Below are positions 1,053 to 6,650 of a stretch of 6,937 nucleotides of DNA, one piece after another. Source of the stretch: a virus (Duplodnaviria; Heunggongvirae; Uroviricota; Caudoviricetes); IMG/VR virus record IMGVR_UViG_2617270978_000007, one strand, 5' to 3'. Position 1 is the stretch's first letter. Each line of letters begins with the position of its first letter. The translations under genes were made by a program, and so were the position numbers. The notes below the pieces were generated by a model, which was not told the origin of the DNA, did not search any database, and saw only the letters and a list, made by a program, of their open reading frames with translations.

Positions 1053-1273
1053 GCCACACCTCCCAGACGCTTAAACATTTTTCCGGAGCAAAAGGCTATA
1101 AGCGGCATACTGATGCGGTAATTACGGCCCAGCGGTTCACAAATCACCTTCTGACATTCACGGTCAACCAGGCTGACACGTAGAACATGCCCTGCAGGCG
1201 TGGTGTACCACTGACCAGGACGAGGACAACGGAAAGTCTGATTGGTAAACCGTTTGAAAATATTCCGGATCAT
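1049..1273 (-). CDS. Hypothetical small protein (74 aa), Cys-containing
   Basis: ORF-track ORF; ATG at 1273..1271 overlaps the Rha ORF stop (ATGA). A purine-rich SD-like stretch lies upstream. Function unknown. Confidence 0.5.
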   Translation of the reverse strand: MIRNIFKRFTNQTFRCPRPGQWYTTPAGHVLRVSLVDRECQKVICEPLGRNYRISMPLIAFCSGKMFKRLGGVA

Positions 1274-2418
1274 TTGCGCCCCCTTACCTCTGAAGGGTTC
1301 AGCGACAAATTTATGAGACTGGCCAGTAGCGCCGCGTCGTTGATGCGGTCATACAGACTTACAGCCAGCGGGGATTCGGCTTTTGCCAACATGGGATAAA
1401 GCTGCTGCAGCCAGACCTGATGAATTGATGAAATGTAGGAATAGAGAACGCTGGCGTTATGTGCAACGTCGCTCAGTACAGAGGGATTTGAAAGCTGTTT
1501 CTCCATCTGGTTAAAGGCATTGATGTATGCCTCTTTGAACTGGGCAGCACGTTTACCCGTGAAACCCATAGCAAGAAACGCAAAGCCGTCGCGGGTTATT
1601 TGATAGCAAGGTAGTTTGCGGCCTGTGCAATCGGTGTAATCACTCACCGAAAAATTGCGGGAAGTGAATGATGCAGAGCATTCAAGCGTGCGGATCTTTT
1701 TCAGTACATCGTCATGACGTTTGGAGAAGAAGTTGGCAACAGCCAGGGATGAAGTAACAGCCTGACCATCAACGATGGCAATTTCAGGTTGAGTGAGGGT
1801 TGGGATCGTAGCCATGATGGCAGCCTCCGTTGACTGTGGAAAACTTCCACCACCGGAGCTGCGAAACTCACTGGTGGCAGACTGAACAGGGTTCGCAGTA
1901 CCGGCGTCAACGGAGACCGGCGAGCCTTTCGGCTCCCCTGCCCAGCCCACCATAATTCTGGCGTGCGTGAGCGCGGACGATAAAAAAGACGCTGGCGCGT
2001 CATATATCGCCGTTGACAATTCCGGGCTGCGACCCCCGGCACCCGCTTTATAAGGTGCCTGAGCAGTGTAACGTCCCGGAATTGCAGAATCAATATGCTG
2101 GTGGTCCTTCACACTCAACAAAATCACGCCTGAATTTCCACAAAGGACTAAAGCACTCATGCGGGTAGTCTTTGCGAAGATAGATAACGCGCTGTGTTTC
2201 TGGCTCCCAACGAATAACATGGACATAAAGCCCTCTTCCGTCACGAAACCAGCGGTTAAGTTCCTGCACAACTCGCCCCCCACAGTCAGGTAAAGTTCTC
2301 TGTGGTTACTTACAGCCAGGTGATTTGGTAATCTGCATTCATGCCGTAACAACAGGTGTTCAGCGACGCTGACCACCAGCTGTTGCGACAAACGGTTATT
2401 TGCCGTTAAACTATTCAT
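1270..2418 (-). CDS. Rha-family phage regulatory protein (382-aa ORF; the Rha domain is the C-terminal 181 aa, with an alternative internal start at 1815)
   Basis: The C-terminal half (MATIPTLTQPEIAIVDGQAVTSSLAVANFFSKRHDDVLKKIRTLE...) carries the F-x-KRH-D-x-VL-x-x-IR signature of Phage_pRha proteins. An internal ATG at 1815..1813 is preceded by GGAGG at 1824..1828. The full ORF starts at an ATG at 2418..2416 that overlaps the upstream stop (ATGA), and its N-terminal ~200 aa are low-complexity (Ala/Gly/Ser-rich) with no recognised domain. Boundaries are uncertain between 1270..1815 and 1270..2418. Confidence 0.55.
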   Translation of the reverse strand: MNSLTANNRLSQQLVVSVAEHLLLRHECRLPNHLAVSNHRELYLTVGGELCRNLTAGFVTEEGFMSMLFVGSQKHSALSIFAKTTRMSALVLCGNSGVILLSVKDHQHIDSAIPGRYTAQAPYKAGAGGRSPELSTAIYDAPASFLSSALTHARIMVGWAGEPKGSPVSVDAGTANPVQSATSEFRSSGGGSFPQSTEAAIMATIPTLTQPEIAIVDGQAVTSSLAVANFFSKRHDDVLKKIRTLECSASFTSRNFSVSDYTDCTGRKLPCYQITRDGFAFLAMGFTGKRAAQFKEAYINAFNQMEKQLSNPSVLSDVAHNASVLYSYISSIHQVWLQQLYPMLAKAESPLAVSLYDRINDAALLASLINLSLNPSEVRGRK

Positions 2419-3378: not shown

Positions 3379-4065
3379 GTGAAAACACTGGCAGAACGAT
3401 TAAAGATAGGTAGAGAGAAAGCTGGCATGAGCCAAGCTCAACTAGCTGAAAAAATTGGACTTTCACAACAATCTGTAGCCAAAATAGAGAATGGCGAAAC
3501 TCTACAACCGCGCAAAATTAAAGAAATTGCAAAAGTTTTAGGTGTATCACAAAAGTGGTTACAACTTGGTATTGAAGACAACGCATCCATACCTGATCTT
3601 GTTGTAAAAGAAGCAGAAAGCACCGCATTAGACCCCGATATTTTCGTAAACATTCCTGTTTTAGATGTCGAGTTATCGGCAGGTAACGGATGTCTGGCTG
3701 AAATAGTTGAATCAGCTATTGACTGGTTTCCGTTAAGAAGAGCAGATTTGAGAAAATCTGGCGTATGTGCATCTAATGCCAAGATCGTACAAATATGGGG
3801 GAACAGTTTATTACCGGTTCTCAATAATGGAGATCTTGTTGCCGTTGATATTTCTCAAACCGTTCCTATTCGTGATGGCGATCTTTATGCCGTACGAGAT
3901 GGTGTATTGCTAAGGGTTAAAATACTTATCAACTTACCTGACGGTGGCTTGATTCTTAGAAGCTTCAACAAAGATGAGTACCCAGATGAAATACTCACCT
4001 TTGAAGATAGACGAGCCAGAATTCATGTTATAGGTAGGGTATTCTGGTCATCGCGAACTTGGTAA
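3379..4065 (+). CDS. CI-like prophage repressor (XRE-type HTH N-terminal domain + LexA/S24 peptidase-like autocleavage domain)
   Basis: 228-aa ORF, GTG start at 3379 with GAGGGA SD-like sequence 7 nt upstream. N-terminal HTH (MSQAQLAEKIGLSQQSVAKIENGE). An Ala-Gly candidate cleavage site (LSAGNG), a GNSLLP segment with the candidate catalytic Ser and a downstream Lys (LLRVKIL) match the Ser/Lys dyad arrangement of LexA and lambda CI. Confidence 0.9.
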   Translation: MKTLAERLKIGREKAGMSQAQLAEKIGLSQQSVAKIENGETLQPRKIKEIAKVLGVSQKWLQLGIEDNASIPDLVVKEAESTALDPDIFVNIPVLDVELSAGNGCLAEIVESAIDWFPLRRADLRKSGVCASNAKIVQIWGNSLLPVLNNGDLVAVDISQTVPIRDGDLYAVRDGVLLRVKILINLPDGGLILRSFNKDEYPDEILTFEDRRARIHVIGRVFWSSRTW

Positions 4066-4938
4066 TGCATCGAAAAGCATTTCTTCAGAAATAATTTTAA
4101 GTTTTGCACCATTATCATCCCTATAAGATATAGCCTTTTCGATCTTCCTTCCGTGACTAGAGAATTTCCAATCACGGGAGGAAAGCGTCCCAATTACTAA
4201 AAAATCCAACTTTTGAGTAATTCCACTACTGATGTTCCCACCAGCATTTTTAATCAAATTTTCAACTACGGCTCTCTTTCCTGCAACAAAAGTGCCTGTA
4301 AGACAATAGGTTTTACCCTCTAACTCTATCGAAGCCCCTACATCAATAGGCAGCCTGGTCGCCAAACCATCCACCACCCCACTTTCCAAGTCACATCCTG
4401 TGAAGTCTACTAATGCCTTATGTAGAGTTAAACTCTCATCTTCAGTAATAACACCATCTTTAAGAATTTCCTTTACAAGTGCATAAAGTTTTTTTCCTGG
4501 GTAGTTGTTCTTCAAAGCTCCATTTTGCTCAAGCCACCAATTAAGATATCTTATTTCTTCTTGAGTTAAGTTCCGATCAGCAATTAATCCTTTACATAGT
4601 CCATTAAGTAAATGGACATCTACATCCTTGGAGTAAAAATCAATTTCAGGGATATCAAGAATTTCCCTCTGTATTTGGAGAAGGCTATTTTTAAGGTCAT
4701 CACGTTCTTCTGATGTGATTATTCCATCCGCAAGAATATCCGACACCCGAGCAGATAGACTTTTTATAACTCCATTATTGATAATCTGCTTTGCTTCAAG
4801 TAACCATGTATCTAAGTAAAGAACCTCCTCTTCACGGACAACTCCATCTGCAATGATTCCATCAATGATGCTAATCAAGTTAGCAAATAACTTGTCCCGG
4901 TTCTGTGTGTAATTAAAAGCGTAAAGCGCGTCTTCCAT
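4048..4938 (-). CDS. TerB-like repeat protein with C-terminal BRCT domain (296 aa); accessory (moron) gene
   Basis: ATG at 4938..4936 with GGAGG at 4943..4947 (MEDALYAFNYTQNRD...); the ORF-track start at 4968 lacks an SD. Four ~35-aa repeats carry the motif (I/L)ADG-x-(I/V)-x-x-EE (IADGVVREEE, LADGIITSEE, IADRNLTQEE, LKDGVITEDE), resembling TerB-type domains. The C-terminal ~85 aa (GKTYCLTGTFVAGKRAVVENLIKNAGGNISSGITQKLDFLVIGTLSS...AKLKIISEEMLFDAL) match the BRCT pattern of NAD-ligase C-termini. The stop at 4048..4050 overlaps the repressor 3' end by 18 bp. Confidence 0.8.
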   Translation of the reverse strand: MEDALYAFNYTQNRDKLFANLISIIDGIIADGVVREEEVLYLDTWLLEAKQIINNGVIKSLSARVSDILADGIITSEERDDLKNSLLQIQREILDIPEIDFYSKDVDVHLLNGLCKGLIADRNLTQEEIRYLNWWLEQNGALKNNYPGKKLYALVKEILKDGVITEDESLTLHKALVDFTGCDLESGVVDGLATRLPIDVGASIELEGKTYCLTGTFVAGKRAVVENLIKNAGGNISSGITQKLDFLVIGTLSSRDWKFSSHGRKIEKAISYRDDNGAKLKIISEEMLFDALPSSR

Positions 4939-4990
4939 ACAACCTCCTTTTTTTGATAATCCTTGCACTCCTTGGCTACTCGTTCAAACC

Positions 4991-5037
4991 ACATAAAGTT
5001 GTTGGCAACATTCAAAACCACAACTAAATTACAACTT
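4991..5037 (+). promoter_or_regulatory. OL-like operator region with predicted rightward early promoter (-35 TTGGCA 5002..5007, 17-bp spacer, -10 TAAATT 5025..5030)
   Basis: Shares ACATAAAGTTGT (4991..5002, identical to 3338..3349) and ACCACAACT (5017..5025, identical to 3308..3316) with the OR region, plus ACAACTT at 5031..5037. A perfect palindrome TGTTG-G-CAACA at 5000..5010 overlaps the candidate -35. The promoter is by eye only. Confidence 0.45.
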
Positions 5038-5121
5038 AAAGGTGTTAAGACAACGAACAGGCAGGACACCCACGAAGTAGCCGCCTGGGGCATATGAAGT
5101 CCAGGATGATTCGTTAGCAAC

Positions 5122-5145
5122 AAAAAAGCGCCCTACAGGACGCTT
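5122..5145 (-). terminator. Rho-independent terminator on the - strand (8-bp stem with one G.U pair, 4-nt loop, U-rich tail)
   Basis: The - strand RNA reads AAGCGUCC-UGUA-GGGCGCUU followed by UUUUGUU (from the + strand A-run 5122..5127). On the + strand the same stem has a C/A mismatch and no U-tract, so termination looks - strand specific. It lies about 240 nt downstream of the 144-aa gene stop and upstream of the OL region. Confidence 0.5.
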
Positions 5146-5146
5146 A

Positions 5147-5159
5147 GCTCTTTAACAAT
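5147..5159 (+). promoter_or_regulatory. boxA-like element (GCTCTTTAACAAT), candidate antitermination (nut-like) site about 120 nt downstream of the predicted early-left promoter
   Basis: GCTCTTTAACAAT at 5147..5159 matches the rrn-type boxA as recalled (GCTCTTTAACAA) and the lambda nut boxA core (CGCTCTT-A). It follows the 5126..5145 hairpin, giving a hairpin-then-boxA order like rrn leaders. Confidence 0.4.
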
Positions 5160-5381
5160 CTGGTCCCCATCAACAAGTAACTGATAACTTGAGGAGGTGT
5201 GAAATGCACAAAACAGAACCCAAAATCGTCGCGCCTAGCTACACAGATGAGTAAATTTATGAGTGGATGACAAAGAAGCTGGCAGCTATAAACCAGCTTC
5301 GTGAAGTGCTGTCTTATCGACAGGAAACAATAGACTCCTTAAAAAAACTGGATCAGGAAATCACGGTTTTATCACAGGATG

Positions 5382-5816
5382 TTACTTTAGATATTGTGCA
5401 GACAAATTAGGATCCCATTCATTTTCGTCAAAATCATCAAAGTGATGAATTTGTGATCTCCAGTCTCGATAATCTAAAAATTTCTGGGCGGTTACGCTTA
5501 TTTTATCAAGTGTGAGTTCATCCTGAATTGAAAGAAGAAGTTCATCAAATTTCATCTCATTAATCTGTTTTGGCATCCAGTGATGCTTCATCAGAATAAG
5601 GTGAACCAGAGCCTTTTTCCCATTCAACTGATTATAGGGAGTGCCGAATTTCTTCCGGTGCTCATGTAAGACAAGATCCAGAAGAGTAAGTAATGTTGCC
5701 CTTGATTCCACTTTGCTTATTTCGACTGATGACACTATCCCACTGATTTCAATGCCCCGATACTTTCCAACATTTTCACAGTGGGATTTGTACAACGTGT
5801 AGATATTACCGGACAT
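5382..5816 (-). CDS. Hypothetical protein (144 aa), orphan accessory gene antisense to the early-left direction
   Basis: ORF-track ORF; ATG at 5816..5814 preceded by AAGGAAA SD-like sequence. Acidic C-terminus (HHFDDFDENEWDPN), no obvious TM segment, no recognised domain. Flanked by direct repeats upstream (5832..5883) and a - strand terminator downstream (5122..5145). Confidence 0.62.
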   Translation of the reverse strand: MSGNIYTLYKSHCENVGKYRGIEISGIVSSVEISKVESRATLLTLLDLVLHEHRKKFGTPYNQLNGKKALVHLILMKHHWMPKQINEMKFDELLLSIQDELTLDKISVTAQKFLDYRDWRSQIHHFDDFDENEWDPNLSAQYLK

Positions 5817-5831
5817 TTCTTTTCCTTTTGC

Positions 5832-5883
5832 GTTGTTGGGGATAACCAGATTAACCGAATCCTTGTTGTTGGGGAATAACCAG
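5832..5883. repeat. Two direct repeats GTTGTTGGGGATAACCAG (5832..5849) and GTTGTTGGGGAATAACCAG (5865..5883) in the upstream region of the 144-aa gene
   Basis: Directly visible 18/19-bp repeat with one inserted A, 33 bp start-to-start, 16 to 67 bp upstream of the 144-aa gene start on the - strand. Shares GTTGTTGG with the OL palindrome region (4998..5005). The - strand reading contains TTATCCCCA, one mismatch from a DnaA box (TTATCCACA). Confidence 0.5.
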
Positions 5884-6104
5884 GTCCACCTCGCCTGATG
5901 TGGCTAAAAGCAGGCACATAACAGCTAAGTATTTTCAACCAGAGAGAATCCTTAGAGTTGTGGTGAATGCGCAGGCTGATGCGCGAAAGACATTGCAGCT
6001 ATTGCGGAAAAGAGCTGTTCGGCGGGGCAATTAAACGCCCGTGAGAGTCTGAAATAACCGCAAGCCGGAGATCAGCACCGGTCACCACAACAGCCACTGC
6101 TTTG

Positions 6105-6150
6105 GCGGTACCAGTTTGTACACTTGCTTCCGGCTGGTACCGCTCTTTTT
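6105..6150 (+). terminator. Hairpin with perfect 10-bp stem (GCGGTACCAG / CTGGTACCGC) followed by TCTTTTT; candidate intrinsic terminator or antitermination element overlapping a boxA-like CGCTCTTTTTACAAAAC
   Basis: Stem arms at 6105..6114 and 6134..6143, 19-nt loop, T-run at 6144..6150. The sequence CGCTCTTTTTACAAAAC at 6141..6157 resembles boxA. Located about 140 nt upstream of the 6288 gene start. Confidence 0.45.
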
Positions 6151-6239
6151 ACAAAACAGAGAAGAGCATCACCGGACGACGGGCTCATAACCCAATCCAT
6201 CCGGGCGGCTGCCACCGCAGGTGTTCTTCTCTGTTTTGT
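6151..6239 (+). repeat. 15-bp perfect inverted repeat (ACAAAACAGAGAAGA at 6151..6165; TCTTCTCTGTTTTGT at 6225..6239) flanking a 59-bp GC-rich spacer, in the leader of the downstream gene
   Basis: Directly visible. Arms are exact reverse complements and would form a long-range RNA stem or a symmetric protein-binding site. It ends about 50 nt upstream of the ATG at 6288. Confidence 0.55.
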
Positions 6240-6287
6240 GGAGAAACCAACCGACCTTGCAGGGTCGATATGATGAGGAGCAGCAAA

Positions 6288-6650
6288 ATGGCTAGCGTAC
6301 GCAGTACTGATGTGCAGGTATTTATCGTAGAACTGGACGGCGGCGTATTTGAAACCAAACTCGGCGCAGTTCTCAGTGAAGTCGCTTCCGGTGTGATGAA
6401 CACGAAAAACAAAGGTAAAGTCTCGGTCAATCTGGACATCGAACCGTTTGATGAGAACCGTGTGAAAATCAAACACAAACTCTCATATGTTCGCCCGACT
6501 AACCGCGGGAAAATTTCCGAAGAAGACACCACCGAAACGCCGATGTATGTCAATCGAGGTGGTCGCCTGACTATTCTGCAGGAAGACCAGGGACAATTAC
6601 TGACTCTTGCCGGTGAACCTGACGGAAAACTCCGCGCAGCAGGTCATTAA
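6288..6650 (+). CDS. Hypothetical early-left prophage protein (120 aa)
   Basis: ATG at 6288 with GAGGAG SD at 6275..6280 (7-nt spacer); MASVRSTDVQVFIVELDGGVFETKLGAVL.... The ORF-track start at 6102 would place the hairpin and inverted repeat inside the coding region and has no SD. Resembles, from memory only, small conserved early proteins of CPS-53-like prophages. Confidence 0.7.
   Translation: MASVRSTDVQVFIVELDGGVFETKLGAVLSEVASGVMNTKNKGKVSVNLDIEPFDENRVKIKHKLSYVRPTNRGKISEEDTTETPMYVNRGGRLTILQEDQGQLLTLAGEPDGKLRAAGH

Follow-up and report, generated by a model that had tools for sequence, protein, structure and literature searches.

The antitermination complex of the ribosomal RNA (rrn) operons is composed of NusB, NusE, NusA, NusG, SuhB and S4. 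Nus factors acting through boxA can also block Rho without the phage N protein on long untranslated RNAs, including reporter constructs (PMC5725501, PMC7665894), and the boxA in the leaders of clustered regularly interspaced short palindromic repeat (CRISPR) arrays guards a long non-coding transcript from Rho without N (Stringer et al., 2020, PMC7665894). A gamma-proteobacterial boxA consensus, GYTCTTTAANA, was derived by Baniulyte et al. (PMC5725501). Here we analyzed a 6,937-nucleotide (nt) stretch of phage DNA (IMG/VR record IMGVR_UViG_2617270978_000007; the whole stretch is referred to as the window), which covers the immunity and early region of a temperate phage resembling SfV, SfIV and e14. 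An original prediction had placed in it a hairpin at 5126-5145 and an rrn-type boxA at 5147-5159, in the leader of the early-left transcript. These coordinates proved exact, and the 13-nt boxA sequence has one exact match in the window. The element is a known kind of signal in a new setting, and its composite layout is common and unannotated.

We propose, at what we consider roughly even chances, that these 34 bp hold two signals, one per strand, at the left edge of a slot for antisense cargo in the early-left operon. The hairpin and its U-tract, read on the minus strand, would end transcription of a gene of 144 amino acids (aa) before it reaches the early-left promoter (PL) and cI. On the plus strand, boxA (in RNA, GCUCUUUAACAAUCUGG), ~110 nt into the transcript from the predicted PL, would bind NusB-NusE(S10), which together with NusA, NusG and SuhB would form an N-independent elongation complex of the rrn and CRISPR-leader type. 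Such a complex would resist Rho while RNA polymerase crosses ~0.9-1.1 kb of untranslated sequence, a stretch that cannot be translated on the plus strand because it is antisense to the cargo. The sequence identity of the boxA, the strand-specific signatures of the hairpin, the conservation of the element and its association with antisense cargo were all observed directly; Nus factor binding and the anti-Rho effect would be expected by analogy with the systems above. Thus, boxA probably lets early transcription cross an untranslated antisense passenger without a Rho stop. The features at the center of this proposal are:

5116 to 5145, minus strand: predicted intrinsic terminator of the antisense cargo (terminator scan, folds, loop and strand asymmetries, upstream antisense open reading frame [ORF])
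5147 to 5163, plus strand: boxA extended by CTGG (consensus match, identity to a 17-mer of phage T7, rrn likeness, invariance)
5382 to 5816, minus strand: antisense cargo gene, 144 aa (ECs1072 family, phrog_5286, function unknown)

The boxA is the exact sequence GCTCTTTAACAAT at 5147-5159 on the plus strand, and its first 11 nt (GCTCTTTAACA, 5147-5157) match the consensus exactly. By chance, ~2x6937/4^13 = 2e-4 exact copies of the 13-mer would be expected on both strands of the window. When up to three mismatches were allowed, 2 matches were found against 2.98 expected, and we therefore give weight to the exact copy alone. We read the E. coli rrn boxAs directly from the genome. The leader boxA is TGCTCTTTAACAATTTATCAG, with a hairpin before it, and the boxA of the 16S-23S spacer, in the interval from tRNA-Ala to 23S, is TGCTCTTTAAAAATCTGGATCAAG (7 copies per genome). 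The window sequence GCTCTTTAACAATCTGG joins the core of the leader boxA to the CTGG extension of the spacer boxA; at the RNA level, the leader boxA has the identical core, GCUCUUUAACAAU, and the spacer boxA the matching extension, AAUCUGG(AU). The predicted PL lies on the same strand as the boxA, ~110 nt upstream, and is accompanied by an operator motif. On the grounds of its sequence, we consider the window boxA to be genuine, as originally proposed, and a probable binding site for NusB-NusE.

The element was expected to be conserved in related prophages, and we found it in related and unrelated prophages alike, far above chance. To assess conservation, we used the hairpin pattern to delimit 37 contexts among the loci that had been retrieved; for some of these loci, the retrieval pattern itself contained boxA. 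The core GCTCTTTAA[C/A]AATC was unchanged in 36 of these contexts, while the preceding base (A, C, T or none), the hairpin loop, the type of leader upstream and the cargo downstream all varied around it. In Klebsiella phage Kp4882-1, the 42-nt unit of hairpin and boxA is the sole sequence in common with the window. The stretch comprising a conserved leader RNA (described below), hairpin and boxA is present in 1065 of 5426 complete E. coli genomes and carries no annotation. The boxA 18-mer also occurs downstream of consensus promoters in unrelated phage contigs and in Stx2 phage PA2, and in one IMG/VR contig (L239, 6343-7581) it follows a promoter-like sequence and directly heads an array of eight tRNA genes, an untranslated transcript. 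In two further loci (L259 and L272), the 18-mer directly follows a sequence like stem I of the HK022 putL site (TCGAACGGCGCGACTTTAAACCATGCGTCGG). A related arrangement is seen in loci L230 and L335, from phage PA2 (record positions 17863-17880), where ~600 nt downstream of the boxA have no annotated gene and hold only short unannotated ORFs of up to 90 aa.

A counterpart was also found in a lytic phage. The 17-mer at 5147-5163 is identical to T7 nt 813-829, 62 nt past promoter A3, within the T7 early leader sequence CGCTCTTTAACAATCTGG (nt 812-829, past A1-A3), and takes the same position relative to early promoters of the host RNA polymerase. Unlike in the window, the T7 genes downstream are sense-oriented and translated. 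The 17-mer is not annotated in the T7 record, and we found no functional study of it.

Read on the plus strand, the hairpin upstream of boxA is AAGCGCCC-TACA-GGACGCTT. On the minus strand, it becomes a stem-loop of 8 bp with a tetraloop (5145 to 5126, AAGCGUCC UGUA GGGCGCUU) that leads into a U-rich tail (UUUUGUUGCU, 5125 to 5116), the run of six U starting within the stem at 5127 with the last two stem bases. The terminator scan called it on the minus strand only, with the tail TTTTGTTGCT. The plus-strand fold is weak and contains a C.A mismatch (minimum free energy -7.5 kcal/mol, centroid -3.9 kcal/mol), and the minus-strand fold is better (8 bp including a G.U pair, -11.5 kcal/mol, followed by UUUUUUGUUG); on energy alone, the hairpin is not distinct from shuffled sequence on either strand. 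Nearly all stem variants retain this pair, G.U in the minus-strand RNA and C.A in the plus-strand RNA. Hairpins accompanied by boxA have 14 loop variants, four of which are UNCG or GNRA tetraloops closed by C-G on the minus strand (UUCG, UACG, UGCG and GAGA) and none of which are on the plus strand. In addition, the largest ORF within 700 nt downstream lies on the minus strand in 46 of 48 distinct contexts, and its stop codon is frequently 9-28 nt from boxA. A G+C-rich stem-loop, a U-tract directly after it and a position 3′ of a gene on the same strand are therefore all found on the minus strand, where we predict, transcript ends included, that the hairpin is a Rho-independent terminator. The suggestion that the element has a dual function, with a terminator on the minus strand, is borne out by these analyses.

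The two signals are separable. When IMG/VR was searched with the hairpin pattern only (AAAGCGCCC-N4-GGACGCTT), 90 distinct contexts were returned, in 53 of which no boxA follows, which marks the hairpin as a widely reused terminator cassette. One contig (L177) has five copies of the identical hairpin ~1.5 kb apart; together with the many unrelated phage contexts, this suggests that the cassette is widely shared. Conversely, boxA and antisense cargo occur without the terminator hairpin in four loci (L228, L249, L281 and L070).

These observations bear on the proposal that the hairpin is the counterpart of boxB placed before boxA. The order of hairpin and boxA is that of the rrn leader, and the position in the PL leader of a lambdoid-type immunity region would also suit a lambdoid nut site of reversed order, in which the hairpin serves as boxB for an unrecognized N-like phage protein. 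We regard this as highly improbable. The loop varies freely among its 14 forms, stable tetraloops appear only on the opposite strand, the C.A mismatch falls on the plus strand, and boxA is also found without the hairpin; moreover, there is no second site in 3.2 kb of the operon of the early-right promoter (PR), and no N-like protein was found in the window or among the SfIV genes searched. Since the G.U pair, the UNCG and GNRA loops, the U-tract and the position after the antisense gene all belong to the minus strand, we do not consider the hairpin a plus-strand boxB analogue.

A nut site of conventional order fares no better. No conserved hairpin follows boxA on its 3′ side, where sequences diverge between cargos within 4-20 nt; the one candidate, at 5172-5189, is a weak 5-bp stem specific to the cargo of the window and not conserved. 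There is no N-like gene among the ORFs of the window, and no N-family Pfam hits were obtained among the SfIV genes of a 9.2-kb stretch that starts in the early PR genes, spans the PL operon and reaches xis and int, although short, divergent N proteins could escape Pfam. A search allowing up to three mismatches found no second boxA in the window, including 3.2 kb of the PR operon, other than a chance-level match with three mismatches at 4455. The absence of boxB, N-like gene and second boxA points to an N-independent signal of the rrn/CRISPR type, and the interpretation as a lambdoid nut site, for which a nutL/nutR pair is also lacking, was rejected. Like lambda, P22 and phage 21, the phage of the window is temperate, carries cI, cro and cII-type genes and has boxA in its PL leader; it differs from them in lacking boxB, an N-like gene and a nutR counterpart, and in having the full rrn boxA consensus. 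The boxA of lambda, CGCUCUUA, is weaker. The mEpimmI phages were also dismissed as a model, as they form a different phage group with an N-like protein, Gp17, and three nut sites (PMC11893012).

The comparison with rrn operons is closer. Here too no N seems to be involved, a hairpin lies upstream and a long untranslated RNA follows. Unlike the rrn leader, however, the window has no G/U-rich boxC (the sequence downstream, CTGGTCCCCATCAACAAG, is C-rich), its hairpin has been selected on the opposite strand as a terminator, and the setting is a phage early operon. A full rrn leader of boxB, boxA and boxC was thus discarded, the upstream hairpin bearing the signatures of a minus-strand terminator. 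By analogy, the closest functional counterpart would be the boxA of CRISPR-array leaders in Salmonella and others, which is likewise a lone boxA near the start of a long untranslated transcript, with no phage N. There are two differences: the untranslated stretch is here the antisense of a protein-coding passenger gene, and the case is known here from its sequence.

The suhB 5′ untranslated region (UTR) has a boxA of the same consensus that is also independent of N (Baniulyte et al., 2017, PMC5725501). There, boxA represses translation of the ORF next to it and thereby promotes Rho termination, whereas most of the contexts considered here lack a sense ORF in that position. In the window, such an ORF would be provided by the following feature:

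5204 to 5410, plus strand: small sense cargo ORF, phrog_1744 (SfIV comparison, PHROGs; 68 aa in SfIV)

Nus factors bound to boxA could repress translation of this ORF, in the manner of suhB or of lambda N. In suhB, boxA represses a downstream ORF over a spacer of up to 100 nt, and a ParE-like toxin gene is likewise repressed by boxA (PMC5725501). A strong Shine-Dalgarno sequence (GAGGAGG) begins 32 nt after boxA in the window and spans, together with the ATG, 5191-5206. However, the ORF is cut in the window by an in-frame TAA at 5252-5254 (GAA in SfIV), leaving a 47-aa remnant at 5267-5410, and boxA is intact; in addition, most other cargos have no sense ORF after boxA, the antisense gene ending within 9-28 nt. 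We consider repression quite unlikely to be the role of the element. As a separate observation, the ribosome-binding region at 5183-5206 resembles that of a yfdP-like gene at 6267-6290 (GATAnnTGAGGAG...AAATG, 71% identity over 24 nt).

We return to boxA as an anti-Rho signal at an antisense cargo slot. The PL transcript has no intact ORF after boxA past the broken 68-aa frame; it then runs antisense through the 144-aa gene, whose 3′ end overlaps that of the convergent phrog_1744 ORF, and the next sense gene starts at 6288. In phages PhiR29_1 and Kp4882-1, the cargo is instead a phrog_1244 gene of unknown function. Searches of the cargo proteins against Pfam, PHROGs, PADLOC and cluster names returned only the ECs1072 family, phrog_5286 and phrog_1244, with no function assigned, and no sigma-70 promoter that could serve the antisense gene was detected by the promoter scan of the minus strand at 5817-6000. 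Among ten relatives that have the PL leader and lack boxA, eight (SfV, K-12 e14, ZF40, YeP1, mEp237, SPN3UB, AH07 and mEp460_4F5) start a sense gene directly after the leader; SfII and ST64B make up the ten. As the closest relatives with a sense-oriented first gene (SfV, SfII and K-12 e14) lack the element, we conclude that it tracks the antisense cargo slot and not PL as such. In K-12 e14, the leader is followed directly by ymfJ in the sense orientation, with neither hairpin nor boxA, and K-12 datasets are therefore no test of boxA.

Several points weigh against this interpretation. SfV and e14 carry an antisense gene (ymfI) further downstream, yet have no boxA. Downstream of boxA, the plus strand shows only mild skews and no marked C-rich, G-poor (rut-like) stretch. 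Many of the loci are mutually related, so that counts do not represent independent events. The conserved leader RNA upstream may already supply processivity, and both PL and its start site are predictions. Finally, Nus factors and boxA may repress instead of protect, depending on context (PMC5725501).

The cargo is bracketed by an inverted repeat, the left arm of which begins within boxA:

5157 to 5177, unstranded: left arm, AATCTGGTCCCCATCAACAAG, overlapping the last 3 nt of boxA (inverted-repeat search)
5833 to 5875, unstranded: right arms, TTGTTGGGGATAACCAGATT at 5833-5852 and CTTGTTGTTGGGGA at 5862-5875 (inverted-repeat search, duplex prediction)

The inverted repeat is present in nearly all distinct loci, with typical arms AATCTGGATATCCCCAACA and TGTTGGGGATATCCAGATT 0.4-0.8 kb apart. 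The arms co-vary between lineages, reading TCAGTTTGGTGAATCA/TGAATCACCAAATTGA in L061, GGATGACT/AGTCATCC in L067, L113 and L199, and GGATACCCC/GGGGTATCC in L096; co-variation is weak in L126 and L147. The predicted RNA duplex between the arms averages -28 kcal/mol, compared with -11 kcal/mol for control windows, and beats all controls in 38 of 39 loci. It is more stable as plus-strand than as minus-strand RNA in 30 loci versus 9 (Wilcoxon p = 0.003), and G.U-compatible arm mismatches number 34 on the plus RNA and 8 on the minus RNA; 48 of 90 arm mismatches are incompatible with pairing on either strand. The repeat may form a long-range helix in the RNA, or it may mark, at the DNA level, where an exchangeable cassette ends.

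If it forms a helix, boxA may act as in rrn operons. There, the 5′ side of a long-range processing stem comes after boxA, and the Nus complex serves as an RNA chaperone. RNA tethered at boxA by NusB/E would then be held at the polymerase until the 3′ arm emerges, so that the following ~20 nt pair with the inverted copy 0.4-0.8 kb downstream; this would loop out the antisense stretch, which RNase III might cut, as in the precursor stems of 16S and 23S rRNA and in the lambda N leader, whose RNase III stem the bracketing repeat also recalls. This would be compatible with an anti-Rho role. In its favor, the repeat adjoins boxA not only in the window but in almost every distinct locus, the co-variation, duplex stability and preference for plus RNA are as this model would have them, and a 'looping' model for Nus complexes has been described (PMC5725501). 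On the other hand, more than half of the arm mismatches cannot pair on either strand, mutation bias and shared ancestry could explain the strand bias, and the inverted repeat is equally explicable as a feature of the DNA. The extension AATCTGGAT after boxA is also found in T7 and in the rrn spacer, where an inverted copy was not looked for. We therefore rate a chaperone role as rather unlikely. We hold the same doubt about its fuller form, in which boxA would be the 5′ anchor of a device like that of rRNA operons, with looping out and perhaps RNase III excision of the antisense stretch creating, together with the back-to-back terminator, a slot, insulated in both directions, for interchangeable antisense genes expressed in lysogeny, with neither polarity nor damage from double-stranded RNA.

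Alternatively, the conserved sequence may act on the minus strand or at the DNA level, its likeness to boxA being secondary. It could then belong to the 3′ UTR of the antisense mRNA, as part of a 5′-3′ panhandle or of an RNA derived from the 3′ UTR and complementary to boxA, or form a terminal inverted repeat or boundary for cassette exchange. It does lie between the antisense stop codon and the terminator, often 9-28 nt from the stop, and it overlaps the inverted repeat that brackets a variable cargo, at least two unrelated families (phrog_5286 and phrog_1244) occupying the one slot. However, its most invariant part, GCTCTTTAA, is outside the inverted repeat, the right arm being GGTTAATCTGG; T7 and many unrelated phage leaders have the 17-18-mer in sense orientation directly downstream of promoters, and it also precedes a tRNA array; and a match to the rrn boxA at 13 of 13 positions is improbable as a by-product. 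We consider this alternative unlikely, and favor boxA as a plus-strand signal.

The original prediction saw in the element a processive antitermination site that carries the early-left transcript through both the antisense gene and a hairpin further downstream. The first part fits an N-independent anti-Rho model. The second does not follow from boxA. Two structures on the same strand are relevant here:

6104 to 6150, plus strand (that of PL): strong intrinsic-terminator-like hairpin (GGCGGUACCAG...CUGGUACCGC, then UCUUUUU)
5048 to 5120, plus strand: conserved structured leader RNA (closing stem, invariant core AGGCAGGACNCCCACGAAGUAGCCG, covarying hairpin)

The 6104-6150 hairpin, which is inverted repeat I14 of our search, folds at -22.4 kcal/mol (z -3.6) and is kept in SfV, which has no boxA. 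Nus complexes of the rrn type counter Rho, and strong intrinsic terminators are not efficiently suppressed by them. For both reasons, boxA does not account for read-through at 6104-6150, and it is not expected to carry polymerase through this terminator. The hairpin is part of an extremely stable plus-strand fold upstream of the yfdP-like gene (6100-6245, -72.4 kcal/mol, z -7.5), in which a terminator-like hairpin (6104-6144) is followed by a hairpin of ~100 nt (arms 6151-6175 and 6215-6239) whose base pairs with the U-tract of the terminator. The segment ~5950-6300 is 96-99.7% identical to Stx2, mEp460 and cdtI phages.

The leader RNA occupies 73 nt at the very start of the PL transcript, a position that makes it a candidate, as a conjecture, for the actual handling of intrinsic terminators. 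BLAST searches found it in phages of Escherichia, Shigella, Salmonella, Klebsiella, Citrobacter, Yersinia, Pectobacterium and Pantoea, where it is never annotated, and it is present in more than 1300 E. coli genomes, lying between ymfK and ymfJ in K-12 e14. In a structure alignment of 22 sequences, which supports two covarying stems around the core, 94% of cells pair and 10 pairs change on both sides, which none of 500 shuffles reached, and slid controls gave 20-46% pairing. The covariance model built from it (R1) scores 93.5 bits on the window leader. A comparison with put sites concerns this leader and not boxA: like HK022 put, the leader is a cis-acting element with which the PL transcript opens, in a lambdoid phage that lacks N. 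However, put consists of two tandem stems (PMC9378689), whereas the leader has a closing stem around an invariant core and a hairpin. With filters off, R1 found nothing in the PL/PR region of HK022, neither putL nor putR, and in the rest of that phage its matches were scattered and none exceeded 8.5 bits (E > 4). As far as homology can be detected, a kinship with put was consequently rejected.

The genes and signals around the element define its orientation:

3379 to 4065, plus strand: cI-type repressor gene (HTH_3 and Peptidase_S24)
3243 to 2995, minus strand: cro-like gene; genes for a CII(CP76)-like protein and an Ash/Rha antirepressor come next on this strand
4987 to 5046, plus strand: PL-like promoter in operator-like inverted repeats (promoter scan, inverted-repeat search)

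With cI on the plus strand and the cro-like, CII(CP76)-like and antirepressor genes on the minus strand, the early-left direction is that of the plus strand. The promoter scan predicted PL on this strand, as TTGGCA (5002-5007), a 17-nt spacer and TAAATT (5025-5030), within inverted repeat I6 (arms 4987-5002 and 5031-5046); in SfV, SfIV and e14, the corresponding site past cI reads TTGACA-17-CATAAT. The octamer AAAGTTGT has four copies in the window against 0.45 expected, three in the cI-cro intergenic region and the fourth at 4995-5002, its last base being the first of the predicted -35 hexamer. This shared octamer supports a PL that is controlled by the repressor and predicted to start near 5037.

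Between cI and the predicted PL lies an antisense gene for a 306-aa BRCT-domain protein (4048-4968, minus strand; phrog_3989, with a weak match to PADLOC PDC-S48). No BRCT gene is found at that position in SfV, SfIV or e14, and it may be a defence or moron gene expressed in lysogeny. An Rfam search of the whole window at a permissive threshold found no match at the leader, at boxA or in 5900-6290; its sole matches, on the minus strand, were C4 antisense RNA (1870-1957, 78.8 bits) and isrK (1982-2058, 58.7 bits). Both fall inside the listed 382-aa Ash/Rha ORF (1270-2418, minus strand), upstream of the Ash and Rha domains, so the true start of the antirepressor is probably further downstream. 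C4, isrK and the antirepressor form an anti-immunity module of the P1/Gifsy type in the PR operon.

The covarying leader RNA, which is absent from Rfam, and the co-varying inverted repeat that brackets the cargo are worth study in their own right. As for boxA, an unannotated copy is found in about one fifth of complete E. coli genomes, in the early leader of T7 and ahead of a phage tRNA array. If our interpretation is correct, N-independent antitermination by Nus factors and boxA would extend beyond rRNA, CRISPR arrays and suhB, and would be routine in temperate and lytic phages. It would also explain how antisense passengers expressed in lysogeny can reside in an early operon without causing polarity, with a terminator serving one direction of transcription and boxA the other.

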